Made by a program: the position numbers and the translations under genes. Shown piece by piece: positions 4,326 through 21,265 of a stretch of 21,265 nucleotides of DNA. The stretch covers positions 4,066,974-4,088,238 of the forward strand of contig NC_063380.1 in NCBI RefSeq assembly GCF_021869965.1. Reading direction: 5' to 3'. This DNA comes from Rhincodon typus (taxonomy: Eukaryota). The notes under the pieces are model-generated. The model made no database searches. It saw only the letters and a program-made list of their open reading frames with translations, and was not told where the DNA came from. The first letter of the stretch is position 1. Every line of letters begins with the position of its first letter.

Positions 4326-5228
4326 TTACAACACAGTGACAGCTACTCCCAGCAACATTATGTCCCACCCAATTCTGGTAGCTGACCAAAGCCTCCTTTT
4401 GTACCCTTTATTTTATTGCAAGCCAGGAATCTGATGGCAACATATACAGAACAGATAGCTACAAGACTCAAGAGCATGTGAATGGTTCTATGCGGTCAGA
4501 ATTCAGGGAGAAAAGTTTGGGAATTAATAGGCAGCTTAGCAATGGGGTCAGGACTCGGTAATCATCCTGGGAAGATCACCGGCTCTATGCGAAGAGCTTG
4601 GAAGAAGTCTGCAGACATCAATTCTTCAGAGGGGCTGGGACAGTGAAGATTGGAAAAACTCAGGTAGAATTTGCTTGATGCAATGGGGCAAGCTCGAAGG
4701 GGAGAAAATGCAGGGGTAGTACTGGCTTGGTGAAACACTGGAGTATTCCCAAGTCCACAGTGGGGGAGGGGGGGGCGCAGGAGACTGAGCAGCCAGAATA
4801 GTCGCTGAGAGACAGTCCATGACAGTGTGACTCCAGAAAACGTGGTTCAAGGCCAATGCAACAAGTGAAGAATGGTGATCCTGTGTGAAGTATAAAGATT
4901 GGATGGCCCCCTGTGTCACTCATGTCTGAGGGGAGTTGCTGAGCAATGATTTACTATTTAATGTGTACTGCGGGCTATTCCATCAAGGTCTATTATTTAT
5001 ATTTACCAAATGTTATTTGTAGATGTTAGTAATATGTTGCACATGTAATGTAGATTGATATACTGTTCTAACATTGGATTAAAAAAACAGCTTTGCTATA
5101 CGTTGTTCAAAAATGTACAATCCTGAGGTATTTCCCCCATCAAGTTCCCTGAATCTAACAGCTTGTTTATTTGAGACAGGTCCCCGAGCCAGATCTTGCC
5201 AAAGTGGCAGTTGTGGCATTGCACCCAC

Positions 5229-5560: not shown

Positions 5561-5780
5561 GGATTTTGAAGTTGAGTCACATTCTGAGCACAACTGGACA
5601 GTGATCTTGTAGCCTCAGGTCCGAGCACTGGGATTAAATTCTTGAATGCAGCGCCTACCGATACATCATTTACAATACAGAAGAGAGAGGGAGAGCGTTG
5701 AGAGACGTGAGCAACAGAAAGATAACTGAAAGAGCAACGAAGGGATGAGATAGAAGCAGTGTGTCTCCACTCTTCTGTAC

Positions 5781-5990
5781 CTTGATCAGTAGCACAGAGT
5801 GACTGCGACTGGAACGACAATTCAGTTTGGTGCTGGCCGTGGTCCGTCTTTGTGTGGCCGGCAGGAAGAACTGCTCAAACTCCACGAAGCTGGTGATCGG
5901 TTGCTGCGTCAGGTTGGGAATGAAAATGTTCTTGTCTTGGTCCTCTCGGATCGGCAAATCCTGGTGCGTGGTCTCCAGCAGATCCAACAC
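5781..5990 (-). CDS. KIF22: Kinesin motor exon: [70 protein letters not shown]
   Basis: Acceptor cgtgtctcag|GTGTTGGAT and donor CTGATCAAG|gtacagaag. It is 210 nt (70 codons) in phase 0. The SSRSHS switch I motif and the colinearity with KIF22 VLDLL...[38 protein letters not shown] support the call. Confidence 0.82.
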
Positions 5991-6549: not shown

Positions 6550-6641
6550 CTGTCAATGAGAAAACAAACAAATGGTTGAGGGGGGGCTGTTCTCCAACTG
6601 AGGAGGCTCAGCAGCAGACTGTCACTCACTCGGTCGCTCAC

Positions 6642-6769
6642 CTGCTCCCGTAGGGCCGTAGGCAAAGACACTGGCATTCTGTCCATTTAGGATATGCGAC
6701 AGGATCGGTTTCACTGAGTTCACATAGATCTCCTGCTGTGACGCGTCATCACCGTAAAATGCATCAAAA
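6642..6769 (-). CDS. KIF22: Kinesin motor exon: [42 protein letters not shown](G)
   Basis: Acceptor cctcctgtctttcag|TTTTGATGC and donor GGGAGCAG|gtgagcgacc. It matches KIF22 [43 protein letters not shown]. Confidence 0.82.
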
Positions 6770-7794
6770 CTGAAAGACAGGAGGAAGGGAGGTTTAGCTA
6801 CGTGTATAGCCGGGGAAACGTGCTCTCAATTAGCCTTATTACTATTTTAAACAATTTTCCTCGCTAGGCGGTGGAAGCAGATTCCTTGAAAATTTGTACA
6901 GTCGAGGTGGATAGTTTGCTGCTAACCTTTCACCCCTTCCGTCTTCTCCTGCGGGAAGCTGGGAATGTGGAGTAATGAGACCAGCCACGTGTTCTTATTG
7001 TACAGTAGGGTCAGGGATCAAAGAGCCGAGGGTTCCTGCTCCTATTTGAGATGCACAGCACAGAACAGACCGAGGGGCTATCTGATCAAGAGGGGGGCCT
7101 GGTTCTTCCACAGACTGATACCCAGACATTGCATTGGGCAGCAAACACCTTTGAGATTTACAAGGGTTTTATTTTAAAATCAATAGTTTAACACCTTTCC
7201 CTATCCAGAGGCAAACTCCCCACTGGAGAAGAACCCAGCTCCATTTCTTTAAATAAACCAAACAAGAAAAGTGACAATTGCCCACTGCGGGGGTGGGGGT
7301 GGACTGTAACGTGTACCAAAACCAAACATTAACTATGGGAATGGAATTAAAATAATGTTGGACAGGGAAAACAGTGCCCAGCTGGCCTGAAGAACTTCAA
7401 AAAGGTGCAGTACAAAGTCAGAACAATAACAATGAACAAATTTATGACTTTTTGTTTGCAAAAAGAAATCACTTTGCTAATGTAATTTGCTGTAGCTGTC
7501 CAGCTCAGGAAGTTAAATCATTCAATTGAGTGAAGTGTGACTGGGTGTTAACAAACATGTCAGTTATCACCACATGCTCCCTCACCATTGCAGTCACGTC
7601 TGCAGCTGGGTGTCAAAGAGGTGGGCTCTTACTACTTACCTACGTTAGCAAGGCCCACAAAGCCTCAAATGCTTAAAGATCAGGCGTCTGGTGCTGAAAT
7701 GACACCAAAGATTTCTTAAGAAAACGAAAACAGTGTGCAACCTCCCACAACCTGCACACACATGGTCATGGACACAGGAAGCCAGTGGTTTGTT

Positions 7795-8140
7795 TATTTT
7801 TACATAGTATCCCCACAGGGTGGAAACAGGCCATTCGGCCTAAAAAGTCCACACTGACTGTCCCACCCAGACTCAACTCCCCCCTACCCTATCCCTGTAA
7901 CCCTGGATTTCCCATGGCCAATCCACCTATATCACACATCCCTGGGCACTACAGGGCAACTTAGCACAGCCAATTCACCCTAGCCTGCACATCTTTGCAC
8001 TGTGGGAGGAATCCGGAGCACCCGGAGGAAAACCAAGCAGACGTGGGGACAATGTGCAAAGTCCACACAGTCGCCCAAGGGTGGAATCGAACCCAGGCCC
8101 CTTACAACAGTGTTAACCACTGAGCCACCATGAAATTTAA
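7795..8140 (-). mobile_element. tRNA-derived SINE with a LINE-type 3' tail (...gggccgaatggcctgtttcc...)
   Basis: The minus strand begins catggtggctcagtggttaacactg...ggggcctgggttcgattcc (a tRNA-like A/B-box head). The body is ...cacattgtccccacgtctgcttggttttcctccgggtgctccggattcctcccacagtgcaaagatgtgcaggctagg..., and the tail is shared with CR1-like LINE ends in this window. Confidence 0.6.
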
Positions 8141-8285: not shown

Positions 8286-8896
8286 TGCAATAGCATCTCT
8301 GAAGAGGCTGTTTCCAACATATTGAACCCAATGCTAAAAACCACAAGTGAGGGACAGTAAGATAATGACTAAATCAAATCTTATAGGACGGGGAACTGAT
8401 GTCCCCAGCCAGAAGCCGGCTCTTAAATACAACAGCCCGCTATTTGATCAACTCCGGAACTATTCTGGCATACCTTTCAAAGCCAAGTGCATTTCTAGAC
8501 TGACACTCTCTGCATGGAGGCAATGGGATGAGTCAGTTGCCTGGCAGCTGGTTTGCAATGCAGTGTAGGGCCAACAGCATGGACTCAATTTCACACTGGC
8601 CGAGGGTCACCATCACTCTCACCAGTTTGTCCCAATCTCTCTTCATAGGACGGTTTCCCCAAACGCCCCTCCCCCGCCCAGTGTGACTAGGTGTGTCTGG
8701 ATTAAATTCCATCTGCCATTTCTCCGCCCAAGTCTCCAGCCTATCTATATCCTGCTGTATCCCCTGGCAACTTTAGGGTGAGGAGGGGTGTGTCAGTCGC
8801 TACCGTGAGAGAACACCGAGCTCTGCAATCGCGGTCCATTTTGACCTTACAGCCACGTCGCCATCTCAGCTTGGCGGTGAAGGGAGGGAGGGCGTG

Positions 8897-8916
8897 TCTG
8901 TGTCTGTGTCTGTGTG
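8897..8916. repeat. (GTCTGT)n microsatellite 12 bp 3' of the kinesin ATG-exon donor
   Basis: gtctgtgtctgtgtctgtgtg. Confidence 0.8.
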
Positions 8917-8928
8917 CGGGACGCTCAC

Positions 8929-9152
8929 TTGTACTGCATGGTCTCTGTACGACTCCTCCAGTTCACGATCTCCAGTGAGCGGGTGTCCAGGCCACGCACA
9001 CAGGGGCCCTGCTGCTGGTCATCCTCAGTGGCCTGGTACGGCCGGAGACGGACCACCACCTGCACCTGGCGGCGATGGTGTGGACCAGCCACCTTCCTGG
9101 AGGACTGGACGTCTGCAGGAGGTGGAGGAAGGCTGGACGTCGTCGACTGCAT
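8929..9152 (-). CDS. KIF22: First coding exon of kif22-like kinesin: MQSTTSSLPPPPADVQSSRKVAGPHHRRQVQVVVRLRPYQATEDDQQQGPCVRGLDTRSLEIVNWRSRTETMQY(N)
   Basis: An ATG at 9152-9150 lies directly after a strong acceptor ttttctctctctctttctctccatcag|ATGCAG. The donor is TACAA|gtgagcg, and phase 2 joins the next exon to give AAt. The translation matches KIF22 RVRVAVRLRPF...[27 protein letters not shown]. In-frame upstream sequence (MMNPSLIAF...) is AT-rich and not kinesin-like. Confidence 0.7.
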
Positions 9153-9204
9153 CTGATGGAGAGAAAGAGAGAGAGAAAAGTTAAAAGCAATTAATGACGG
9201 GTTC

Positions 9205-10320
9205 ATCACTATGCAGGGAGTGCCACACTTTTATTCCTTTGTTGGATGAGTGTGTCACCGGTTGGGCCCAGCATTTACTACTCTTCCTAGTTGTCCCTTG
9301 AGGAGGTGGGGGTGAGCTGCCTTCTCGAACCGCTGCAGTTCACGTGCTGTAGGTAAGACCCACAATGCCATTAGAGAGGCAATTCCAGGATTTTAACCCA
9401 GTTAAAAGGAAGAGCTGATATACTTCCAAGTCAGGATGGGGAGTGGCTCGGTGGGGAACTTGCAGGGGGCTGCTGTTCCCACATATCTGCTGCCCCTTCT
9501 CCTTCTGGATGGAAGTGGCCGTGGAAGGTGCTGCCTGAGGATCTTTGGGGACTTTCTGCAGCATTTTATAGATGGTACACACCGCTGCTACTGAGCATTG
9601 GTGGTGGTGGCAGATGTTGGACAGGCTTTGGGGAGTCAGGTGGTGAATTACTTGCAGCAGTATACCCAGCCTCTGACCTGTTCTAATAGCCATAGTATTC
9701 ATATGACGAGTGCAGTTCAGTTTCTGGTCAATGGTAACCCCAAGGATGTTGATATTGGGGGAAATTCAGTGATGATAATACCATGGAATGTCAAGGGGAC
9801 AGTGGTTAGATTGTCCCCACTAAGTGACAGTCATAGCCTGGCACTTGTACAGTGCAAATATCTCTTGCCACTTGTCAGCCCAAGCATGGACGTTGTCCAG
9901 TTCTTGCTGCTTCTGGACTGCTTCAGTGTCTGAGGAGCCGTGAACGGTGAAGATTGTGCGATCATCGGCAAATATCCCCACTTCTGACCTTACGATGGTA
10001 GGAAGGTCATTGATGAAACAGCTGAAGGTGGTTGAGCTCTAGGGCACTACCCTGAGGAAATCCTGCAGAGATTTGCCGGAACTGAGATGACTGAACTTCA
10101 ACGACCGTAACCATTTTCCTACGTGCCAGGTACCACTCCAACCTGCAGTTCCCCGATGCCCATCGATTCCAGTCTTGATACCACACTCAGTCGAACGTGA
10201 CGTTGATGGGGTGTGGGTTCGTTGTTCCTTGAAAGCAGAGTTGCGCGTAGGCAGGGTGATGAAGGCTGCATTTAATATTCCATCTACACTTCTTGTTGCC
10301 GTGGAAAGGCTGTCGACATT
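9205..10320 (-). mobile_element. LINE family A, 3' portion (RT ...RKMVTVVE.QSSQ...GFPQGS... to the SVAAVCTIYKM... C-terminus); the 3' end lies at about 9205 next to the kinesin ATG exon
   Basis: The minus-strand translation is colinear with the plus-strand copy at 18295-19430 (the same blocks SVAAVCTIYKM, ATSIQKEKGQQI.GN.SPLQVP and 3' UTR ctgcagcggttc...aataaatgctgggcc). Confidence 0.7.
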
Positions 10321-10856
10321 ATCATAGACCCCTCCAACCCTGGTAATATTCTCTTCCTTCTGGCAGAAGATACAGAGACTCGAATACATACACCAACAGG
10401 TTCAAGAACAGCTTCTCTCCCCTCTGTTATTAGACTGCTAAACAGACCTCTCTAATGTCAAATTACTTTTTGTACACCTCCTGCGCAGTTGTAACATTGC
10501 ACACCTCAGTCTGTCTGGGTGCCTGTCCATCCGAAATAAAAACCGAAAGAACTGCGGATGCTGTAAATCAGGAACAACAACAAAGTTGCTGGAAAAGCTC
10601 AGCAGGTCTGGCAGCACCTGTGAAGGAGAAAACAGAGTTAACGTTTCAGGTCCGGTGACCCTTCCTCAAAACACGCACACTGAGGAAGGGTTCTGAGAAA
10701 GGATCATCGGACCCGAAATGTTAACTTTGGTTTTTCCTTCACAGATGCTGCCAGATCATGTCTGTCCTTGTTTGCTATGATCTGCGACTGCTGCTTGCAA
10801 AACAAAACTTTTCACTGTAGTTGGGTAGACATGACAACAATAAATCAAATCAAAAG
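10320..10856 (+). mobile_element. LINE family B (L2-type, ...IIDPSNPGNILF...SLPSVIRLLNRPL*) C-terminus plus 3'UTR ending ...cactgtagttgggtagacatgacaacaataaatcaaatcaaa; a hairpin repeat is embedded in the UTR
   Basis: It matches the minus-strand family B copy at 15893-17340 (KDPSHPGYTLF...NRFENSF and the same ...acatgtgacaacaataaatcaaac terminus). Confidence 0.6.
10540..10770. repeat. Full-length hairpin short repeat (arms about 95 nt; loop ...ggtgacccttcctcaaaacacgcacactgaggaagggtt...)
   Basis: The left arm gcggatgctgtaaatcagg...gctcagcaggtctggcagcacctgtgaaggagaaaacagagttaacgtttcaggtc is the reverse complement of the right arm gacccgaaatgttaactttggtttttccttcacagatgctgccagatcatgtctg. Confidence 0.65.
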
Positions 10857-11455
10857 CTTGCCTTTATGGATCAGTGCATCGAGTATAGAACATAGGACAG
10901 CACAACACAGGAATGGGCTCTTTGGCCCATGATGTTCTGTCAAACTTGATGCCAAATTAGACCATTCCCTTCTGCCTGCCCTTGGTCCATATCCCTTCAT
11001 CCCTTGCATATCCATGTACTTATCTAGAAGTCCCTTAAACACTCCTATCATATCTGCCTCCACCACCACCCCTGGCAGCGCATTCCAGTCTCCCACACAG
11101 TGTGTATAAAAAAAAACTTGCCTCTCACATCTCCTTTCAATATTCCCCCCTGTCACCTTAAATGCATGCCCCTTATAATTAGGCCTTTCAACTCTGGGAA
11201 AAAGATTCTGACCGTTATCCCTACCTCTGCATCTCATAACATTATAGACTTCTATCAAGTCTCCCCTCAGCCTCTGCCACACTAGAGAAAACAACCAGAG
11301 CTTTTCTAGCCTCTCCTTATAGCTTATACCCTCTTATCCAGGCAGCATCCTGCTAAACCTCTTCTGCACCCTCCCCAAAGCCTCCAAATCCATCCTGTAA
11401 TGTGGCGACCAGAATTGAATGCAATGCTCTAAGAGTGGCCGAACCAAAGTCTTAC
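10857..11455 (-). mobile_element. CR1-like LINE (family C) 3' portion: LVRPLLEHCIQFWSPHYRMDLEALGRVQKRFSRMLPGLEGISYKERLEKLWLFSLVWQRLRGDLIEVYNVM...FKGLLDKYMDMQGMKGYGP...
   Basis: This is the minus-strand ORF 10845-11294 and its upstream continuation. Its 3' end abuts the family B LINE 3' end tail to tail at about 10857. Confidence 0.7.
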
Positions 11456-12132
11456 ATACAAGTCAGGACGTCACGTACAGGACATTGGTGAGGCCACTTT
11501 TGGAATACTGCATTCGACTCTGGTCTCCCTGGTATAGGGAAGATGTCACGAGGAGTGGCAGATGGAGTTTAATTTAGCTAAGTGTAAGATGTTGCATTTT
11601 GGAAAGGCAAATCGGGGCAGGACTTATACACTTAATGGTAAGGTCCTGGGAAGTGTTGCTGAACAAAGAGACCTTGGAGTGCAGGTAGACAGGGTGGTGA
11701 AGGCGGCGTTTGGTACACTTTCCTTTATTGGTCAGAGCACTGAGTACAGGATTGGTTAGAGACAAAAAAAACTGCAGATGCTGGAATCCAAGGTAGACAA
11801 ACAGAAGGCTGGAAGAACACAGCAAGCCAGGCAACATCTGGAGCAAAGGAGCAGTCAATGTTTTGGGTATTACCCTTCCTCAGGGCTGGAGACCTGAAGA
11901 AGGGTAATGCCCAAAACCTTGACTTCTTCCTTTCTCCAGATGCTACCTGGCTTGCTGTGTTCTTCCAGCCTCCTGTTTGTCTGCATTGAGCTTAGCAGTT
12001 GGGAGGTCGTGTTGTGGCTGTAAATGTTAGACCACTTTTGGGACACTCCCTTCAATTCCAGTCTCCCTGCTGTAGGAAGGATGCTGTGAAACTCAAAAAG
12101 GTTCAGAAAAGAATTACAATGGATTTGCCAGG
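11445..12132 (+). mobile_element. CR1-like LINE (family C) 3' portion in inverted orientation: an LVRPLLEYCIRLWSPWYREDV fragment, then EWQMEFNLAKCKMLHFGKANRGRTYTLNGKVLGSVAEQRDLGVQV...FIGQSTEYR, interrupted by a hairpin repeat, then ...LVRP-like/CRKDAVKLKKVQKR...
   Basis: From the plus-strand translation. It shares a 19-bp core gtcaggacgtcacgtacag (11451-11469) with the minus-strand copy. Confidence 0.62.
11757..11965. repeat. Hairpin short repeat copy inserted in the LINE (aaaaaactgcagatgctggaatcc...ctggaagaacacagcaagccaggcaacatctggagcaaaggag / ctttctccagatgctacctggcttgctgtgttcttccagcc)
   Basis: The arms are reverse-complementary. It interrupts the LINE ORF between ...FIGQSTEYR and the downstream LINE sequence. 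Confidence 0.62.
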
Positions 12133-12905
12133 GTTTGAGCCATAGGGAGTGGCTGGGGTTATTTTCCCTGGAGCGTCAGAGGCTGAGGGGTGTCCTTATA
12201 GAGGTTTATAAAACGATGAGGGGCATGGATAGGGTAAATAAACCAGGTCTTTTCCCCAGGGTGGGGGAGCCCAGAACTAGAGGGGCATAGATTTAAGGTG
12301 AGAGGGGGAAAGTGTAAGGGTTTGAGCTACAGGGAGAGGCTGGATAGGCTGGGGCTATTTTCCCTGGAGCATCGGAGGCTGAGGGGGTGACCTTACAGAG
12401 GTTTATAAAACCATGAGGGGCACTGAGTAGGGTAAATAAACAAGGTCTTTTCCCCAGGGTGGAGGAGTCCAAAACTAGAGAAGCATAGGTTTAAGGTGAG
12501 AAGGGAAAGATTTAAAAGGATATGGAGAGGCTGAGGGGGTGACCTTATAGAGGTTTATAAAACCATGAGGGGCAATGGATAGGGTAAATAAACAAGGTCT
12601 TTTCCCCAGGGTAAGGGAATGTCAAGAACTAGAGGGGCATAGGTTTAAGGTTGGTGGGGAGGGGGGGGGGGATTTAAAAGGATATTGGAGGGTTTGAACT
12701 ACAGGGAGAGGCTGAGGGGGTGACCTTATAAAGGTTTATAGAACCACGAGGGGCAACGGAGGGGCAATGGCCAAGGAGCAGAGGGTCATAGGTTAAAGGT
12801 CAGAGAATAAAGGTTTTTAAAAAAGGATCCAAAGAGACATTTTCTTCAACACGCAGAGGGTGCCACGTGCTGCCAGAGGAAGTAATACAATCATAACATT
12901 TAAAA
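12133..12905 (+). repeat. Tandem array (about 4 units of 165-210 bp) derived from the CR1-like LINE 3' coding tail (...ERLG.FSLE.RRLRGDLIEVYK.MRG.DRVN.QGLFPRV.ES.TRGH.FKV.GE..K..)
   Basis: The unit gagaggctgagggggtgaccttatagaggtttataaaaccatgaggggca..ggatagggtaaataaacaaggtcttttccccagggt...agaactagaggggcataggtttaaggt... starts again near 12133, 12311, 12521 and 12686. The last unit runs on into ...FFNTQRVPRAARGSNTIITFKK, close to the LINE C-terminal motif, and stops 27 bp from the putative exon-1 donor. A G11 run lies at 12661-12671. Confidence 0.7.
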
Positions 12906-13260
12906 AGGCGTCCTTTCAGTTAGTCTCTTACCTGTTTTTTCTCCCCTCGCCGGCCAGAACGGGTTCTCTCACTCATCCCAACCGCCGCCCGATTCAAATC
13001 TGACCAGAGCCCCGCCCCCCGGCTCCCGAGCGCCTCATCTGACTGGTCCGCTGCCCCGTCGTCACCCCAACTCTATTGGCCGCCATGCGCAGGCCCGCCC
13101 CCATAACGGAAGGGGCGGCTCGCCGCCTCCGGTTGGCCGAAGTACACGTCAATCGTAGACACGCCCACCTTCCCATTGGGCGGGCGTCCCAGTTGGTCAC
13201 GTGCCACGGCACCCATTGGACGCTTCAACCGTCTATCATCTGTACCGCGACCTGTTCCCC
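12900..13260 (-). promoter_or_regulatory. CpG island with 3 CCAAT boxes plus CHR (TTTGAA) and GC boxes; candidate cell-cycle (G2/M-type) promoter oriented toward the minus-strand kinesin gene
   Basis: The segment is very CpG dense in an otherwise CpG-poor window. Plus-strand ATTGG (minus-strand CCAAT) sits at 13075-13079, 13175-13179 and 13215-13219. TTCAAA (minus-strand TTTGAA, the CHR) is at 12993-12998. Sp1-like ccccgcccccc is at 13010-13020 and gggcggg at 13179-13185. Confidence 0.4.
12932..12995 (-). other. KIF22: Putative non-coding exon 1 (5'UTR) of the kinesin gene; the TSS end is not defined
   Basis: Minus strand reads ...gggagaaaaaacag|gtaagagactaactg, a consensus donor at 12932/12931-12930, immediately downstream of a CHR element and three CCAAT boxes. 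The ATG exon at 9152 starts at a strong acceptor, which implies an upstream exon. Confidence 0.3.
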
Positions 13261-13261
13261 T

Positions 13262-13445
13262 CTGAGATAGGAGGAACTGCAGATGCTGGAGAATCTGAGA
13301 TAACAAGGTGTAGAGCTGGATGAACACAGCAGGCCAAGCAGCATCATAGGAGCAGGAAGGCTGACGTTTCGGGCCTAGACCCTTCTTCAGAAAATGATGC
13401 TGCTTGGCCTGCTGTGTTCATCCAGCTCTACACCCTGTTATCTCT
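13262..13445. repeat. Full hairpin short repeat copy inserted in the CpG island (ggaactgcagatgctggagaatctgagataacaaggtgtagagctggatgaacacagcaggccaagcagcatc ... gatgctgcttggcctgctgtgttcatccagctctacaccctgttatctc)
   Basis: The arms are perfect or near-perfect reverse complements. Confidence 0.68.
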
Positions 13446-13960
13446 GTTCCCCTCTGATATTGGATTTACCGGAACGCCCGCCCCTCCAGGCCCGCGCCTG
13501 CAACCCACTGGTTATTCCTCAATACATTCTTCCAATCGGATTGGAAGATTCTGTTGTCAGTCACCAGTCTTGCTGCCCGTCTCATTCGCCTCCCGCCCCT
13601 AATGGTTTACATTGGTCGATCCAACCATCCATCATTCACGCTTCCCACCCATCCGGTACTACCTGTCAATCAACTCTCGGACCTGCCTCCTGCGGATGGG
13701 ACTGCTTTTTGACCTTTCCCCGCCCCTTCCGCTGTGCTGATGTCACCTCCCATTAGTTTGTCCTGGTGTCAATCACCGAATCCTGTCCTCCATTGGTTTC
13801 TGCAGCTGCCCATCAGCGGAACGGCCCAAGCGGAGGAGACGGGACATTCCTGTTCCCTCCCACATTCAGACTTCCTGTTCCCTCCCACATTCAGACTGAG
13901 GAGTCTCCAAATAGTTTGCCTCCAAACAAAGTCGCTGCTTCAATAACTCCTTCTCACTTC
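13446..13960. promoter_or_regulatory. Second GC-rich block carrying a palindromic CCAAT pair (cttccaatcggattggaag, about 13536-13554), further ATTGG/CCAAT boxes, TGATGTCA, and a 2x tandem 24-bp motif (tcctgttccctcccacattcagact, 13845-13892)
   Basis: Read directly from the sequence. It is separated from the 12900-13260 island by a hairpin-repeat insertion. Confidence 0.25.
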
Positions 13961-14091
13961 CTCAGTCTCTCTGCATTCTTATCTATCATTTTCTGTAGGA
14001 CTTCTGTCGCAGTGGTAAGCATTATTACTGCCAGAGCTATTACTCTCAGGATTGTTACCGTGAACCAGTTCCTGCTATCAGGAGTAGAGAT

Positions 14092-14175
14092 AGTAGGAAC
14101 TGCAGATGCTGGAGAATCCGAGACAACAAGGTGCAGGGCTGGATGAACACAGCAGGCCAAGCAGCATCAGGAGTA
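14092..14175. repeat. Partial hairpin short repeat (left arm only) inside the minisatellite
   Basis: gtaggaactgcagatgctggagaatccgagacaacaaggtgcagggctggatgaacacagcaggccaagcagcatc. Confidence 0.55.
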
Positions 14176-14354
14176 TTGCTTTGTGCCTGTATTATTACTA
14201 ACAGGATTATTACTGTCAGGAGTATTGGTCTGTGTCAAAGTTATTACTGCCAGAGTAATTTTTATCAGGAGTATTACTGTTAGAATTATGTCTGTCGGGA
14301 GTATTACTGACAGAGTGATTGCTATCTGGAATATTATTGCCAGAATTATTACTA

Positions 14355-14495
14355 GGAGCTAGCAAGAACTGCAGGTGCTGGAAGTTCAGAGTCAATACAG
14401 TGTGAGCTGGAGGAACACAGCAGGTCAGGCAGCATCAGAGGAGCAGGAAAGTCAATTTTTCAGATTGGGACCCTTCGTCAGGATGGAATTATTAC
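14355..14495. repeat. Partial hairpin short repeat (left arm plus loop) inside the minisatellite
   Basis: gcaagaactgcaggtgctggaagttcagag...gagctggaggaacacagcaggtcaggcagcatcagaggagcaggaaagtcaatttttcag. Confidence 0.5.
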
Positions 14496-14769
14496 TATCA
14501 ATTGTATTACAGTCTGTCACTTATTACTAACAGGAATATTATGATGTGCTAGTGTTGTTACTGACAGGATTAGTTCTGTGAAATTTATTCTTGTCAACAG
14601 TATTTCTGTCAAAGTTACCCTATCAGGAGGATTTCCATCCAAGATATCCCTGCTTGGAGTTCTATTTCCAGAGTTACTATTGGCAGGAGTTTTACTGCTA
14701 GAATTATTACTATCATGTGTGTTACTGTCTCAGAGGAATTACTATCAGAATTATTGCTATCAAAAGTCA

Positions 14770-15715
14770 CAGTGATCAGGGGGGATTTCAATATGCAGGT
14801 GGACTGGGAAAATCATGTTGGCAGTGGATTGCAAGAAAAGGAGTTTGTGGAATGTCTACGAGATGGCTTTTTGGAGCAGCTCGTGGTGGAGCCCACAAGG
14901 GAACAGGCAATACTGGATTTAGTGTTGTGCAAATTGGCAGATTTGATAAAGGAGCTTAAGGTGAAGGAACCCTTAGGAGGCAGTGATCATAAGATGATAG
15001 AATTTACTCTGCAATTTGAGAGGGAGAAGATAGAATCAGAGGTAACGGTATTACAGCTGAATAAAGGCAACTACAGAGGCATGAGGGAGGAGCTGGGCAG
15101 AATTGACTGGAAGATGAGCCTAGCGGGAATGACAGTGGAACAGCAATGGCAGGAGTTTCTGGGAGTAATTCAGGAGACACAGCAAAAATTCATATCTCAG
15201 GAAGGATGTACTGGCCCTGGAGCAGGTTCAGAGGAGGTTCACGAAAATGGTCCCAGGAATGGAAAGCTTAACGTACGAGGAACGTTTGAGGACTCTGGGT
15301 CTATACTCGTTGGAGTTTAGACAGATGAGGGGGGATCTAATTGAAATTTTCAGAATACTGAATGGCCTGGACAAAGTGGATGTTGGGAAGATGCTTCTAT
15401 TGGTAGGAGAGACTAGGACCCAAGGGAACAGCCTTAGAGTAAAGGGAAGACCTTTTAGAATGGAGATAAGGAGAAACCCCTTCAGCCAGAGAGTGGTGAA
15501 TCTATGGAATTCACTGCCACAGAAGGCTGTGGAGGCCAGGTCATTGAGTACATTTAAGACTGAGATAGATAGGTTCTTTATTAACAAGGGGATCAAGGGT
15601 TACAGGGAGAAAGCAGGAGAATGGGGTTGAGGAACTTATCAGCCATGATTGACTGGTGGAGCAGACTCGGTGGGCCGAATGGCCTAATTTCTGCTCCTAT
15701 GTCTTATGGTCTTAA
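14770..15715 (+). mobile_element. Internally deleted CR1-like LINE: the ORF2 endonuclease C-terminal fragment (GDFNMQVDWENHVG...LGGSDHKMIEF...) is fused directly to the 3' end (EERLRTLGLYSLEFRQMRGDLIEIFRILNGLDKVD...FKTEIDRFFINKGIKGY... ggccgaatggcctaatttctgctcctatgtcttatggtc)
   Basis: ORFs 14715-15320 and 15247-15630. The SDH motif is the C-terminal motif of APE-type endonucleases, and there is no RT core between the EN fragment and the tail. Confidence 0.7.
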
Positions 15716-15892
15716 AATTATTACTTTCAAGAGAATTACTGCCAGTTATTCCTAACAGGATTATTACTGTTAGAGTTCTTACTATCAGCATTATTACTGT
15801 CAGCTAGAGTTATCAAGATTATTACTGTCATATTTTTCTTATCAGGAGTATTACTTTGAGATTGTAACTGTCAGAATTATTTCTGTTTGAGT

Positions 15893-17340
15893 TTGATTTA
15901 TTGTTGTCACATGTACTGAGATACAATGACAAGTGTTGTTTTGTGTATTAGACAGGCAGATTGTACAATACAAAGTGCATCAGGGTAGCAGAACAGAGGG
16001 CAGAAATGTAGTGTTACAGCCGCAGGAAAGGCACAGAAAAGGAGAGATCAACATTAACATTTGAAAGTGTGATAAGAAGCTGTTCTCAAATCTGTTTGTA
16101 CATGTGTTCAAACTTTTATGCCTTATGCCGGATGGAAGAGGTAGGAAGAGAGTGTAACCGGGGTGGGAGGGGTCTTTGATGATGTTGGTTGCTTTCCCAA
16201 GGCAGTGGGAAGTGTAGATGGAGCCAGTGGATGGAAGGCTGGCTTGTGTGATGGACTGGGCTGTGCTCACAACTCTCTGTCGTTTCTTGTGGTCCTGTGG
16301 TATAGCAACTGTTCTTCCCGCTCTGATGCATCCAGATGGAATGCTTGCTTATGGTGCCTCTATAAAAATTGTTAAGAGTCCTTGTGGACGTGCTGAATTT
16401 CCGTAGCCTCCTGAGGAAGTAGCTGCGTTGTTGTGCCTTCTTGGCCATTGTGTCAACATGGATGGACGTGGCCAGATTGTTGGGTGATCATCGCCTCCCA
16501 GGAACATGACACTCTCGACCGTCTCTATCTCAGCACCATTGGTGCAGACCAGGGCATGTCCTCCACCCCGCTTCCTGACGTCAGTGACCAGCTCCTTCAT
16601 TTTGCTGACATTGGTGGAGAGATTGGTGTCTTAACACCATGTCGCTATGCACTCGGTCTCTTTCCTGTGTCCTGTCTCGTCGTTGTTTAAGACCCGACCT
16701 ACAACAGCAGTGTCATCAGCAAACCTAAATGGAGTTGGAGCGGAATTTGGCCATGGGTGTATAAGGAGTGTGGTAAGGGTATGCAGCCCCGTGGAGCACT
16801 GGTGTTGAGGTATATGGTGGAGGAGGTGTTGTCGCCTAATCTCACTGTCTATGGGTCAGAAAGTCCAGCTACAGAGGTGGGTGGGGGGGGTGGTGTGGAG
16901 CCGAGACCTAGGGCTCAGGGTTTGGAGATGCCTTTGTTTGGGATTATGGCGTTGAAGACGGAGCTGTAGTCCAAGAGTAGACTTGTCATTCAGATGCAGC
17001 GGGGATGAGCATAGGGCCAGGGAGATGGGGTCTGCCATGGGCCCATTGCGCCGGTAGGCACATTGTCTTGATCCTTTGCAATCTGGGAGGCTGGCGTTAA
17101 TATGAGCCCTGACTTAACTCTCGAAGCACTTCATAACGATGGAGGTGAGGGCAGTAGTCTGCATGACTTTTCTTCGGCACCGGGATGATGGCAGCCTCCC
17201 TGCAGCGGGTGGGGACTTCGGATCAGAGTAAGGAGGGGTTAAAGATATCAGCGAATACCAGCAGCCAGCCTGTCCACACAGGATCTGAGCGCGTAGCCCG
17301 GGACTCTCTATCCAGGGCCTGCCGCTTCTCGTGGGTTTTC
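15893..17340 (-). mobile_element. Internally deleted L2-type LINE (family B). The RT N-terminus (...NPGKPTRSGRPWIESPGLRAQ...ALTSIVMKCFE) is joined to the C-terminus (...LVTDVRKRGGGHALVCTNGAEIETVESV...MAKKAQQRSYFLRRLRKFSTSTRTLNNFYRGTI...KDPSHPGYTLFLPLPSG...NRFENSF)
   Basis: Minus-strand ORFs 17114-17398, 16349-16600, 16116-16448 and 15980-16270. The 3' terminus ...acatgtgacaacaataaatcaaac lies at about 15895-15950. Confidence 0.7.
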
Positions 17341-17514
17341 CAGGGTTAATGTTTTTGCGATTACTACTGTCAGAGTTATCACTATCCAGCTTTATCACTT
17401 GTCTGTCAGTGTTCTTTCTGTCTGCCTGGATTGTTACTGGTGGAATGTTTCAAGGGCGCGACCAAGTGTTTGGATGAGGGTGGGGCACTAGAACTGGCTT
17501 TGTATGGATTTCAG

Positions 17515-18150
17515 CAAGGCGTTTGACATGGGAAGCTGATAGACTCACACAGCTCGGAAACAGACCCTTCTGTCCAACCAGGTCATGCTGAGAGTAATCG
17601 CGAACTAAACTAGTCCCAACTGCCTGCACTTGGCCCATATCGCTTCAAACATTTCCTATTCATGTACTTATCTAAGTGCCTTTTAAATATTACAATTGTA
17701 AGCGCAACCACCAATTACTCAGGACATTTATTCCACATGCAAACCATTCTCTATCTTAAAAAAAAAAGTTGCCCCCATGTCTTTGTTAAATCTTTCTCCT
17801 TTCACCTTAAAAATATGTTCCCTAGGCTTGGAAACCATCCCCCACCCTAGGGAACAGATACCTGCCATTCACCTTATCTATACCCTCTCGTTATTTCATA
17901 AACCTTTATAAGGTCACCTCTCAATCTCCTATGCTCTAGTGAAAAAGTCCCAGCTTATCCCGCCTCTCCATATAACTCAAACCCTCCATTCCCGGCAACA
18001 TCCTGGTAAATCTCTTCTGTACCCTTTCCAGTACCTTTCCTACAACTGGGAGACCAGAACTGGACACAGTGCTCCAGAAGAGGCCTCACCAATGTGCTGT
18101 ACGATCTCAACACGACGTCCCCAACTCCTACACTCAAAGGTCTGAGCAAT
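17515..18150 (-). mobile_element. CR1-like LINE (family C) 3' portion (TLVRPLLEHCVQFWSPSCRK...LGLFSLEHRRLRGDLIKVYEI...FKRHLDKYMNRK...), with a small plus-strand RT fragment (...ALYGFQQGV, the YMDFSKAFD motif) at 17450-17525
   Basis: Minus-strand ORF 17955-18149 and the downstream translation. The terminus is ...ctgtttccgagctgtgtgagtctatcagc. Confidence 0.6.
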
Positions 18151-18159
18151 GAAGGTAAA

Positions 18160-18258
18160 GAAGGTAAAAGTTATTGGGTTTCAGGGTAATTTAGCAAGTT
18201 GGAATCAAAATCAGCTTTGTGACGGGACACAGAGGGTAGAGGTAAAAGGCAAAAGACA
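18160..18258 (+). mobile_element. Short LINE RT fragment (KVIGFQGNLASWNQNQLCDGTQRVEVKG, similar to ...HGI.G.LL.WI.NWL..R.QRV.V.G)
   Basis: Read from the plus-strand translation. It is inverted relative to the adjacent minus-strand LINE piece. Confidence 0.35.
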
Positions 18259-18294
18259 GGATTATTACTGTCAGAGGTATTGCTCTCAGAGCTA

Positions 18295-19430
18295 AACTCC
18301 TGAGGTGAGGTGAGAGTGACAGCCCTTGACGTCAAGGCTGCGTTCGACCGAGTGTGGCATCACAGAGCCCTAGCAAAACTGGAATCAATGCCAATCAGGG
18401 GGCAAACTCTCTGCTGGTTGGAGTCACACCTGACACAGAGGAAGATGGTCATGGTTGTTGGAGGTCAATCATCTCAGCTCTGGGACATCTCTGCTGGAGT
18501 TCCTCAGGGTAGTGTCTTAGGCCCAACCATCTTCAGCTGCTTCATCAATGACCTTCCCTCCATCATAAGGTCAGAAGTGGGGGATGTTCACCGATGGTTA
18601 CACAATGTTCAGCACCATTTGTGACTCCTCAGATACTGAAGCGGTCCGTGTTCACATGCAACAAGATCGGGACAATATCCAGGCTTGGGCTGACAAGTGG
18701 CAAGTAACATTCGCGCCACACAAATACCAGGCCAGGACCATGACCAATAAGAGACAATCTAACTGCCATTGACGTTCAGTGGTGTTACCATCCCTGAATC
18801 TACCCATTATCAATATCCTGGGGGTTGCCATTGACCAGAATCTCAACTGGACTCCCCACATAAACATGAGCAGGTCAGAGGTTAGGAATACTGTAGCAAG
18901 AAACTGACATCCTGACTGTCCACTTGCCTGGATGAATGGACCTCCAACAACAGTCAAGAAGCTTGACATCATCCAGGACAAAGTAGCCTGGATTGGCACC
19001 ACATCCACAAACATCCCACTCCACCCGCCACCACCGAAGCTCAGTTGCAGCAGTGTGTACCATCTACAAGATGCCCTGCAGAAATTCACCAAAGACCCTC
19101 AGGCAGCATCTTCCAAACCCCACGGCCACTTCCATCCAGAAGGACAAGGGGCAGCAGATACACGGGAACACCAGCCCCCTGCAAGTTCCCCTTTGAACCA
19201 CTCTTAATCCTGACTTGGAAATATATCGCCGTTCCCTCAATGTGGCTGGGTCACAATCCTCGAATTCCCTTCCTAAGAGACACTGTGGGTCTACCCACAG
19301 CTTATGGACTGCAGCGGTTCAAAAAGGGAGCTCACCACTATCTTTTCAAGGGGCTGCTAGGGACAGGCAATAAATGCTGGGCCTAGCCAGTGATGCCCAC
19401 ATCCCACAGATGTATTAAAAAAAATTGTTA
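18295..19430 (+). mobile_element. LINE family A 3' half (RT ...LDVKAAFDRVWH...QRKMVMVVGGQSSQ...GVPQGSVLGPTIFSCFINDLP...MFTDGYTMF[FADD-box degenerate]...SVAAVCTIYKM... to the 3'UTR ...ggcaataaatgctgggcctagccagtgatgcccacatcccacagatgtattaaaaaaaa)
   Basis: ORFs 18310-18624, 18584-18772, 18993-19196 and 19045-19386. It is colinear with the minus-strand copy at 9205-10320 and ends in an A-rich tail. Confidence 0.72.
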
Positions 19431-19689
19431 CTGTCTGCCAGAGGTATCACTCTCAGGATTATTACCGCCTGTCCGAATTATTACTGTCAACTATTTCTAC
19501 CTGGCTTTTTACTGTTAACCAGGGCTATTACTGTCAAGATTATTCCTAGTAGGATTATTACACTCATTCCAAAAGTGTCAGAACTATTACTGTCTGCATA
19601 GCTTACCTACTGCCATGAATATTACTGACTGCCAAGATTATTACAATTAGGAGTTTCTTTTATTTTTTGCTGACAGCATTAATACCATT

Positions 19690-20245
19690 GGGATTATCAC
19701 CAGAAAATAAGAGGGACAAGGTAAGTTATGAGCGCAAACTAGCAAGTATACAAAACTGGCTTCTTTATATGAAAACGAGGAGAGGAGCTAAAGAGAAATT
19801 GGATAATGGAAAATAGTAATGGGGAACCAGGAAATGGAAAAGGAACTGAATACATATTTAGCATCAGTCTCCTAGTAATATTCTGAAATGACTAAATAAA
19901 CAAGAAGGAGGGGAAATAAATCCAATTACTATTTCGAGAGAAAAGTGTTGGTAAAACTAATGGGGCTAACGACCGATAAATCTGGATCTGATGAGATACA
20001 TCCTAGAATTTACAGAGGGTGGTTCATGTGTGGAATTAACTTCCAGAGGAAGTGGTGGGTATGGGTTCAGTTACAACGTTTAAAAGACACTTGGATAAGT
20101 ACATGAGTAGGAAAGGTTTGGAGGGACAGGAGCCAGGAGCAGGCGGCTGGGACTAGTTTAGTTCGGGATTATGTTTGGCGTGGACTGGATGGATCGAAGG
20201 GTGTGTTTCTATGCTGTATGACTCTGTGACCAGCTACAGAGATAG
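19690..20245 (+). mobile_element. Degenerate, internally deleted CR1-like LINE: RT N-terminus (...LKTDKSPGPD-like ...ASIQNWL...RINLDLMRYILEF) joined to the 3' end (FKRHLDKYMSRKGLEGQ...CVSMLYDSV)
   Basis: From the plus-strand translation. The terminus is ...gtgtgtttctatgctgtatgactctgtgac. Confidence 0.45.
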
Positions 20246-20249
20246 TGGG

Positions 20250-20723
20250 GACAGAATAATCTCCGTTTCCACCTCTCTGTCTCGCTGCCTGTAACAAAAG
20301 TTGGTCTCATTGTGGTGAGTCTCTGTCTCCCTCTCCAGCTGTTCTCACTGCGGTCTCTCTCGCTCTCTTTCTTGCTCCCTGGCTTGTGCTGTCGCTGTCA
20401 CTTTCGCTGTCTTGCGCTCTCTCGCTCTCGCCCTTGCTCTCTCGCTCTACCATGCTCCCTGGCCCTCGCCCTCTCTCTTACCCTCTCTTGCCCTTGCCCT
20501 CTCACTCTTGCCCTTGCCCCACCTTCTCGCCCTTGCCCCCCTCTACTCTTTCTCACCCTTGCTCTCTCGCTCTCTGTCTGCCCTCTCTCGCTCTCTCTCG
20601 TTCTACCATGCTCCATGGCCCTCACCCTCTCTTACCCTCTCTCGCCCTTGCCCTCACCCCCACTCTCACCCTCTCTCACCCTTGCTCTCTCTCTGCCCTT
20701 TCTCACCCTTACTCTGTCGCGCA

Positions 20724-20761
<38 letters not shown>

Positions 20762-20860
20762 GCCCTACACCGTCCCTCCAGCCAGTCTCGCTGTGGTCAC
20801 TCTCTCTGTCTCTCTTCCTCCCCACCCTGTCCAGTTGGTCTCCTAGTGGACAATCCCTAG
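20250..20860 (+). repeat. About 600-bp polypyrimidine (CT-rich) low-complexity tract with (CT)~16 at 20726-20758 and an internal duplication of about 160 bp (20440-20600 against 20600-20760). It lies immediately upstream of the pagr1 exon
   Basis: Read directly. All long ORFs here (20312-20860, 20386-, 20412-20846) are SLSL/PLPL low-complexity artefacts. Confidence 0.8.
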
Positions 20861-20862
20861 GC

Positions 20863-21146
20863 ATGCAGACAGAGGATGCTGACCCTGCAGTCAGCCTAGC
20901 TGAACTGACTGTGGACACTGAGGATTCATGGTGCGTTGAATGCAGTGACCAGGAGATCCAGGATGCAGAGACGTGGACTCCGAGCCCCCAAGAGATCCTA
21001 CGCCTGTATGGCGCCCTTGCTGAGGAGGGAAGCAGCCTTGAACTGAGCTGCAGACCCCTACCCCGCCGTCCACCAACTCCCGAGGCTGACCCTACAGAGG
21101 AGGAGGCGGAAGAAGAGGAGGAGGCGGAAGAGCAGGCCACTGAGAA
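20863..21146 (+). CDS. PAGR1: First coding exon of a PAGR1 (PAXIP1-associated glutamate-rich protein 1) orthologue: [94 protein letters not shown](K)
   Basis: It matches the recalled human PAGR1 block EDWCVPCSDEEVELP...[43 protein letters not shown] followed by a glutamate-rich tail. The donor is GAGAA|gtaagataat at 21147. An acceptor-like ccctgtccag|TTGG at about 20834 may mark the exon start. The upstream in-frame CT-repeat translation is not credible coding. Confidence 0.55.
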
Positions 21147-21149
21147 GTA

Positions 21150-21265
21150 AGATAATCTCTCTCACTACCTCTCTCTCTGTGTCTCTGTCTCTGTCTCTCT
21201 CATTCTCTCGCTCTGAGCCCCTGCCTCTCTGTCTCCCTCGATCTCTCCCCCTCTCTCTGAGCCCC
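21150..21265 (+). repeat. CT-rich low-complexity tract resuming directly after the pagr1 exon donor
   Basis: ctctctcactacctctctctctgtgtctctgtctctgtctctc... Confidence 0.7.

Follow-up and report, generated by a model that had tools for sequence, protein, structure and literature searches.

Divergent kif22 and pagr1 genes in Rhincodon typus and the probable polarity of a vertebrate gene-order difference at 16p11.2

The window analysed here is a stretch of 21,265 nucleotides of the Rhincodon typus genome (contig NC_063380.1, positions 4,066,974 to 4,088,238). It holds the 5' portions of two genes, kif22 and pagr1, which lie on either side of a repeat-rich interval. The kif22 start codon is at 9152 on the minus strand and that of pagr1 at 20863 on the plus strand; the 5' ends face each other and the start codons are 11.7 kb apart. 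An earlier reading of the same letters, which we call the original prediction, had described the two genes as adjacent and head-to-head, and both the minus-strand kinesin exons and the plus-strand PAXIP1_C exon recovered by tblastn and Pfam agree with that description. The outer coordinates it had assigned, 8929 and 21146, prove exact, each being the last exon base before a GT donor. The coding features are as follows.

8929-9152, minus strand: first coding exon of kif22, with its ATG at 9152-9150 and the donor AA/GTGAGC after 8929, from tblastn against KIF22 and direct reading; exon 2 in the gene model proposed below.
~6769-6640, 6553-6386, 5993-5778, ~5371-5228, 4307-4173 and 281-132, minus strand: further kif22 motor-domain exons, from tblastn; the gene leaves the window at its left end.
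20863-21146, plus strand: first coding exon of pagr1, with its ATG at 20863 and the donor GAA/GTAAGA after 21146, from Pfam PAXIP1_C.

Joined together, the kif22 exons (9152-8929 included) score 337 bits against the Pfam Kinesin profile and cover positions 1-325 of its 327, and their translations contain the P-loop GKTHTM, the switch I motif SSRSHS and the switch II motif DLAGSE. The window kinesin is 96% identical to KIF22 of Stegostoma tigrinum and 82-92% identical to that of other sharks and rays, and KIF22 is the name on all 120 matches that the protein search listed with a descriptive name. The window cuts the gene within the motor domain, at about residue 372; the orthologues also contain the C-terminal DNA-binding helix-hairpin-helix domain HHH_3 (PF12836). 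The pagr1 exon matches PAXIP1_C (PF15364) with 53.2 bits against a cut-off of 27, the core WCVxCSD...LPRRPPTPE included, and aligns with its counterpart exons in frog, gar, catshark and a cat-family mammal. A protein search with this exon returned a single protein, a partial PAGR1 of Chiloscyllium plagiosum (P0121) to which it is about 80% identical, and MAZ was for this reason used as the synteny anchor. The right edge of the window lies 119 bp past the exon. By both identifications, and judged by Pfam profiles and protein matches, the original prediction was right to call the kinesin the KIF22 (kinesin-10, Kid) orthologue and the plus-strand exon the PAGR1 (PA1) orthologue.

In mammals these genes are arranged differently. 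The cat-family locus carries, one after another on the plus strand, KIF22, MAZ, CD225/PRRT2 and PAXIP1_C/PAGR1, and the human gene list in a review has the same order (PMC11211608), which agrees with the single-strand human series KIF22-MAZ-PRRT2-PAGR1 against which the window had originally been compared. The shark interval had been described as devoid of MAZ and PRRT2 coding potential, and every search that we ran supports this. Probes for the MAZ zinc fingers and the PRRT2 C terminus are 97-100% identical to the genes of the cat-family locus, which served as a positive control; the MAZ probe also detects MAZ in the frog, zebra shark and lizard loci. Against the window, tblastn gave best E values of 0.11 for MAZ and 0.083 for PRRT2, no match in either case, and neither exon was detected in 9153-20862. 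The zebra-shark MAZ protein (P0154) had zero matches to the window, and a six-frame Pfam scan of the interval at E <= 1 held neither zf-C2H2 nor CD225 (PF04505), the two-helix membrane domain of the dispanin family to which PRRT2 belongs. A single match to the C2H2 pattern, at 15979-15911, was set aside as chance, having neither the usual hydrophobic residues nor Pfam support.

Gene order elsewhere was read from the kif22 loci of other species, fetched with 10-kb flanks; coordinates prefixed L001, L002 and L003 refer to the extracted loci of Stegostoma tigrinum (zebra shark), Scyliorhinus canicula (catshark) and Lepisosteus oculatus (spotted gar). In the catshark the pagr1 exon runs from L002 5734 to 5507 on the minus strand and the kif22 ATG is at about 10001 on the plus strand, which places the genes head-to-head and 4.3 kb apart. 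The spotted gar has its pagr1 exon at L003 4673 to 4527, inside a called minus-strand gene of 264 aa, and kif22 at 10016 on the plus strand, with a spacer of 5.3 kb. The annotation of the frog Spea bombifrons (CM049776.1) lists MVP and a PAXIP1_C gene (6551-7831) on the minus strand, followed by KIF22 (10001-14078) and a C2H2 gene (18022-23323) on the plus strand, and the zinc fingers of this last gene match the MAZ probe at 66-85% identity per segment. The frog thus has mvp and pagr1 pointing one way and kif22 and maz the other, with 2.2 kb between kif22 and pagr1. The comparison of gene order that the original prediction had proposed as a check therefore finds the same divergent pair in catshark, gar and frog.

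The position of MAZ can be followed further. In the zebra shark, the closest relative found, kif22 (158,882-187,927) and MAZ (P0154; 72,826-111,231) are both on the reverse strand of CM060558.1, with MAZ starting 47.6 kb beyond the 3' end of kif22. Contigs carrying KIF22 and MAZ are equal in size in Scyliorhinus (98,274,498), Heterodontus (199,287), the teleost Stegastes (122,631) and others, and likewise in Hymenochirus, where the two genes have consecutive locus tags (018722 and 018723). We infer that the MAZ counterpart of R. typus is positioned beyond the left edge of the window. The zebra shark also has a gene with a NUFIP2 domain (PF15293) between kif22 and maz, at L001 40470-49046 on the minus strand and convergent with kif22, with a large open reading frame (ORF) at 43210-44328. 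This gene may be a whole-genome-duplication paralogue that was retained here and lost in tetrapods; human NUFIP2 lies at 17q11.2 beside TAOK1 in a region paralogous to 16p11.2.

We read the interval as the region that separates two anciently divergent neighbours, minus-strand kif22 and plus-strand pagr1, probably including the introns of their 5' untranslated regions (UTRs), with the head-to-head arrangement ancestral and the mammalian order derived by inversion; we put the probability of this reading at roughly 0.85. Because the arrangement occurs in sharks of two orders, in a ray-finned fish and in a frog, outgroup comparison indicates that head-to-head kif22 and pagr1 is the ancestral state of jawed vertebrates and that KIF22, MAZ, PRRT2 and PAGR1 in series is the derived one. 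In frog and zebra shark maz shares the strand of kif22 and lies downstream of it, and therefore no MAZ exons are expected between kif22 and pagr1; by this evidence MAZ is neither lost nor relocated, its place being downstream of kif22 as in frog and human. One inversion of the kif22-maz block (possibly with prrt2) relative to pagr1-mvp, after the amphibian split and on the lineage toward mammals, would give the human 16p11.2 order. Flipping that block in the frog arrangement yields exactly KIF22, MAZ, PRRT2, PAGR1 and MVP, all in one direction, and a single inversion on the lineage to mammals appears to be the parsimonious explanation when outgroups are compared. The shark spacer, now 11.7 kb against 2.2 kb in frog, 4.3 kb in catshark and 5.3 kb in gar, would have expanded through transposon insertions into the minisatellite and the first introns.

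Several observations weigh against this reading. The polarity rests on three non-mammal lineages (sharks, gar and frog) against one mammal. The NUFIP2-domain gene of the zebra shark has no equivalent between kif22 and maz in the frog, so the blocks are not identical. In the zebra shark, pagr1 was not seen directly, the fetched flank ending about 4 kb short of it, and in the ray Hemitrygon no pagr1 was found within 10 kb upstream of kif22, a result that is uninformative since the genes are long. PRRT2 did not appear in the 10 kb downstream of zebra-shark MAZ, nor was it located in any non-amniote.

Taken against the mammal alone, the window does look inverted and emptied of two intervening genes, and the original prediction had accordingly favoured an inversion of kif22 or pagr1 in the shark lineage, with MAZ and PRRT2 lost or moved. 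Part of this survives, in that an inversion does separate shark from mammal. To place it in the shark lineage, however, would require an independent and identical inversion in ray-finned fish and amphibians, since gar and frog share the catshark layout, and a loss or relocation of MAZ conflicts with its position downstream of kif22 in zebra shark and frog and with its presence in Scyliorhinus and Heterodontus on the chromosome or contig that carries kif22. We consider a shark-specific event highly improbable. The other possibility raised at the outset was an assembly collapse or mis-join at the repeat array (13990-19690) that brought the genes together artificially. The interval is indeed repeat-rich: at least 58% of the bases in 9153-20862 have dispersed counterparts in a comparison set of only about 245 kb from other shark loci, and a degenerate minisatellite is present besides. 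Moreover, 16914-20862 is the one stretch without a cross-check from another orectolobiform assembly. Yet the window contains no Ns, and the independent zebra-shark assembly is collinear with it at 84-85% identity from inside kif22 up to the limit of the fetched flank (8578-16913), a span that takes in the CpG island, the earliest patches of the minisatellite and a long interspersed nuclear element (LINE) nested among them; the non-coding DNA of the window aligns collinearly with zebra-shark CM060558.1 at 84-90% identity. The array is also degenerate (64-88% matches by Tandem Repeats Finder, TRF) and broken by unique transposon fragments, which makes collapse less likely. Because of this collinearity, the lack of Ns and the three other species with the same adjacency and orientation, a mis-join is very unlikely, and we give it next to no weight.

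A narrower alternative concerns PRRT2. The ancestral layout might account for MAZ while PRRT2 is truly absent from the shark neighbourhood, having been lost, lying elsewhere, or having joined MAZ only in the tetrapod or amniote lineage. No PRRT2 or CD225 signal was found in the window or in any of the shark, ray, gar and frog flanks fetched, and adjacency of MAZ and PRRT2 is seen in amniotes only, at the cat-family locus and in a fused gene model of Alligator mississippiensis. That model (P0162, 'MAZ isoform B') joins MAZ zinc fingers to the C-terminal CD225 domain of PRRT2; the fusion is an annotation artefact, yet it shows the same-strand succession of MAZ and PRRT2 in a crocodilian. The lizard MAZ locus shows no neighbour within 10 kb and is uninformative. 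Against a true absence, the shark genes here are 7-12 times longer than those of the frog, so that a neighbouring gene could easily lie outside a flank of 10 kb, and the PRRT2 search covered only the window and the fetched flanks. We regard a shark neighbourhood without PRRT2 as possible, if rather doubtful.

Between the two start codons the interval contains one strong CpG island. The features that bear on a promoter are these.

~12900-13850, no strand assigned: CpG island, the only strong and clear one between the genes, split by an insert resembling a miniature inverted-repeat transposable element (MITE) at 13261-13444; candidate promoter for kif22 and possibly for pagr1 too.
13079-13075, 13179-13175 and 13219-13215, minus strand (kif22 orientation): three CCAAT boxes upstream of the CHR, from a motif scan.
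12977-13001, minus strand (kif22 orientation): conserved block AGATTTGAATCGGGCGGCGGTTGGG with a CHR element (cell cycle genes homology region), TTTGAA, identical in Stegostoma (L001 6215 onward).
12932-12990, minus strand: predicted non-coding exon 1 of kif22, about 50-60 nt with an approximate start, donor CAG/GTAAGA.
9153-12931, minus strand: predicted intron 1 of kif22, a 5' UTR intron with its AG acceptor at 9154-9153 and GT donor at 12931-12930, containing LINE fragments, MITE-like elements and a tandem LINE tail (TRF 12151-12509, period 198); orthologous and collinear in Stegostoma.

The island reaches a GC content of 0.69 and a CpG observed/expected ratio (o/e) of 0.93 at 13001-13200, with o/e near 0.65 out to 13800, and outside the 13261-13444 insert no part of it matches dispersed repeats. 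At the same intergenic position a CpG island is also found in Stegostoma, Scyliorhinus, gar and frog. The CHR block of the window island recurs in Scyliorhinus (L002 8526 onward) with 22 of 26 positions identical and the variant CHR TTCGAA, and it is single-copy upstream of kif22 in each species. This 26-nt block is the only stretch of intergenic DNA that can be aligned between the orectolobiform sharks and Scyliorhinus; on the pagr1 side of the island no conserved block beyond it was found between the window and Scyliorhinus. The three CCAAT boxes are matched in Stegostoma (plus strand, L001 5994, 6034 and 6167), and the gar island has a CCAAT/CHR arrangement at L003 8062, 8160 and 8258. The motifs stand in the right orientation and are conserved in three sharks, and gar has a layout like theirs. 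Human KIF22 is listed among the late-cell-cycle genes whose CHR elements are conserved in evolution, and the TTCGAA variant binds DREAM above background (PMC4176359, Table 1 for the former). In the window and in Stegostoma the CHR is followed 60-70 nt downstream by a consensus donor, and Scyliorhinus has a GT donor-like site at a similar distance.

The sequence just before the start codons points the same way. The kif22 ATG is directly preceded by an acceptor-like ...tttctctccatcag, a pyrimidine tract followed by CAG, and an equivalent is present in five other species (6/6 examined). The pagr1 ATG is directly preceded by an acceptor-like site in four species, with a (CT)n run and then CAG in Scyliorhinus and gar and a pyrimidine tract and then CAG in the frog. 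These acceptor-like sites before both ATGs suggest that kif22 and pagr1 each begin with a non-coding first exon. We propose the CpG island, some 3.8 kb upstream of the ATG, as the kif22 promoter, with a G2/M-type layout of CCAAT boxes, CHR and short non-coding exon 1. In the corresponding gene model, predicted from motifs, the transcription start site (TSS) would be near 12990, non-coding exon 1 would extend to 12932, and a 3.8-kb intron filled with transposons would lead to the coding start at 9152. For pagr1 a non-coding first exon is also probable, and its place may be the island proposed for kif22 or else the CT-rich tract at 20300-20860.

It is also conceivable that the island at 12.9-13.85 kb serves an unannotated transcript, or pagr1 only, and that kif22 starts just upstream of its ATG. 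The TSSs and non-coding exons of our model are predictions from sequence motifs, and 8801-9200 is likewise moderately CpG-rich (o/e 0.6-0.8). A single TTTGAA is weak evidence by itself, one CHR hexamer being expected by chance about once per 2 kb with both strands counted. The CCAAT boxes are spaced by 40, 100 and 82 bp, looser than in classic G2/M promoters, where they lie roughly 31-33 bp apart. Against such a separate kif22 start, the pyrimidine tract and CAG directly before the ATG in all six species argue for a spliced leader, and the CHR belongs to the sole intergenic block alignable between orectolobiforms and Scyliorhinus. Its orientation, the upstream CCAAT boxes and the consensus donor 60 nt downstream all fit kif22, and the island contains no ORF, Pfam, Rfam or tRNA signal. 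We think it unlikely that the island is not the kif22 promoter.

A bolder extension of the kif22 promoter model, which we offer tentatively and rate as less probable than its negation, is that kif22 and pagr1 have used one shared bidirectional CpG-island promoter since the jawed-vertebrate ancestor (>450 million years), each with a short non-coding exon in the island. The mammalian 16p11.2 inversion would then have cut the shared promoter, uncoupling two proliferation-linked genes and placing PAGR1 directly behind PRRT2. If this were true, part of the regulatory wiring of the human 16p11.2 copy-number-variant region would be new to mammals or to amniotes. Neither a KIF22/PAGR1 bidirectional promoter nor an inversion in the mammalian lineage was found described in a search of the literature.

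Comparison with known systems helps to place the locus. With mammalian 16p11.2 (KIF22-MAZ-PRRT2-PAGR1-MVP) the window shares orthologous KIF22 and PAGR1 (PAXIP1_C), and the sub-blocks of kif22 with downstream maz (zebra shark, frog) and of pagr1 with downstream mvp (frog) are conserved. The relative orientation of these sub-blocks is inverted, however, the 5' ends facing each other in the window, catshark, gar and frog, and in the mammal PAGR1 lies about 450 bp behind PRRT2. Shark PRRT2 was not located in the flanks fetched. The S. bombifrons locus resembles the window in the order and orientation of kif22 and pagr1, the intergenic CpG island and the acceptor-like sites before both ATGs. It differs in its spacer, 2.2 kb against 11.7 kb, the window having LINE and MITE insertions and a minisatellite in addition, and in having no NUFIP2-domain gene between kif22 and maz, where the zebra shark has one.

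The candidate kif22 promoter resembles the CHR/CCAAT promoters of G2/M genes (bound by DREAM and MMB-FOXM1; CCNB2, KIF23 and human KIF22) in its TATA-less CpG-island context, with CCAAT boxes upstream of a TTTGAA CHR in gene orientation, the Scyliorhinus TTCGAA being an accepted variant. It is unlike them in its irregular CCAAT spacing and in that a predicted 5' UTR intron would separate it from the start codon, some 3.8 kb away. The locus also recalls divergent CpG-island gene pairs, with two broadly expressed, proliferation-linked genes placed 5' to 5' around an island and kept so in sharks, gar and frog. The usual working definition of bidirectional pairs asks for transcription starts less than 1 kb apart, which the acceptor-like sites before both ATGs would permit; here the distance between the start codons is 11.7 kb, and mammals broke the pair, so that linkage is not obligatory.

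The value of this analysis is mainly corrective. A synteny difference between human and shark had first been taken for a rearrangement peculiar to the shark, with loss of genes, or for an error of assembly, when the head-to-head layout is in all probability the ordinary ancestral vertebrate state, already visible in annotated frog and gar genomes. A zebrafish study states merely that 16p11.2 gene order is not conserved (PMC3484866). Gene-order differences are best polarised with outgroups before loss is inferred, and here the data indicate that the human 16p11.2 order arose via inversion on the lineage toward mammals. Shark kif22 also gains a testable gene model, with a conserved-CHR promoter 3.8 kb upstream of the ATG and a predicted non-coding exon 1.

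The remainder of the interval consists of transposon and minisatellite sequence, with the following features.

14021-19683, plus strand: degenerate 15-bp minisatellite, consensus about ATTATTACTGTCAG plus N, in patches at 14021-14358, 14488-14763, 15717-15889, 17360, 18261 and 19424-19683.
14715-15715, plus strand: LINE fragment with the C-terminal part of the endonuclease and an ORF2 tail (Exo_endo_phos_2, E = 4e-4, in ORF 14715-15320); multiple dispersed copies in other shark loci.
15980-17350, minus strand: LINE fragment (ALKBH8_N, 38.8 bits, in ORF 16116-16448; weak RVT_1; both around 16.1-16.6 kb) with dispersed copies.
18288-19408, plus strand: LINE reverse-transcriptase fragment (RVT_1, E = 7e-12, in ORF 18310-18624) with up to 8 dispersed copies in other shark loci.
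20300-20860, plus strand: CT-rich low-complexity tract, with TRF rows lying between 20416 and 20758; its end is the acceptor-like ...ccctag that abuts the pagr1 ATG.

The minisatellite consensus ATTATTACTGTCAG, allowing up to 3 mismatches, has 38 matches against 1.8 expected, all inside 14021-19683 and nearly all on the plus strand; TRF reports it at 14191-14344 and 15735-15855. The original prediction had described the interval as transposable elements, satellite and one CpG island. All three are present, but the satellite is no 5.7-kb array: its degenerate 15-bp repeats add up to roughly 1.3 kb and lie in patches with nested transposon insertions between them. The six-frame Pfam scan of the interval, run on translations with X in place of stops and limited to segments of at least 22 aa, returned LINE domains only (Exo_endo_phos_2, RVT_1 and ALKBH8_N), and Rfam (at gathering thresholds) and tRNA scans of the window were empty. 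The ALKBH8_N match on the minus strand at 16116-16448 (MAKKAQQRSYFLRRLRKF...) belongs to a LINE fragment and to no gene; it shows this Pfam model catching retrotransposon tails.

Short elements are scattered among these. A hairpin-forming MITE- or SINE-like (short interspersed nuclear element-like) element with the core GGAACTGCAGATGCTGGAGAATCYGAGAYAACAAGGTG...GCTGGATGAACACAGCAGGCCAAGCAGCATC has copies at 13261-13444, 14086-14173, 14363-14483, 11770-11990 and ~10540-10760, with up to 10 more in a few other shark loci, and one of the window copies sits in the middle of the CpG island. A LINE 3'-tail fragment (...LRGDLIEVYK...RVNKQGLFPRV...) occurs in 3-4 tandem copies at 12151-12755, with a period of about 198 bp and 88% matches; this structure adjoins the CpG island and is common to the zebra shark. 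A CT-rich or (CT)n tract lies directly 5' of the pagr1 ATG in the window, the catshark (L002 ~5735-5790) and the gar (L003 ~4700-4760), and in the window it picks up again in the intron past the pagr1 exon (21150-21265). The tract before pagr1 could be a conserved polypyrimidine or GAGA-type promoter or splicing feature, or simply a microsatellite.

The kif22 gene of the spotted gar has an unusual structure of its own. Long tandem arrays are found in its introns (L003 11263-21782, 22719-24756 and 24740-26000), the repeat unit taking in the 3' end of a kif22 exon and its splice donor. In the first array a unit of 92-136 bp, which encodes ...GMSYLEIYNEKV with GT directly following, is repeated about 90 times. 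The second has about 14 copies of a 149-bp exon-end unit, again with GT at the exon boundary, and the third consists of 63-bp units with an acceptor and the start of an exon. Dozens of decoy splice sites thus lie within an essential mitotic gene.

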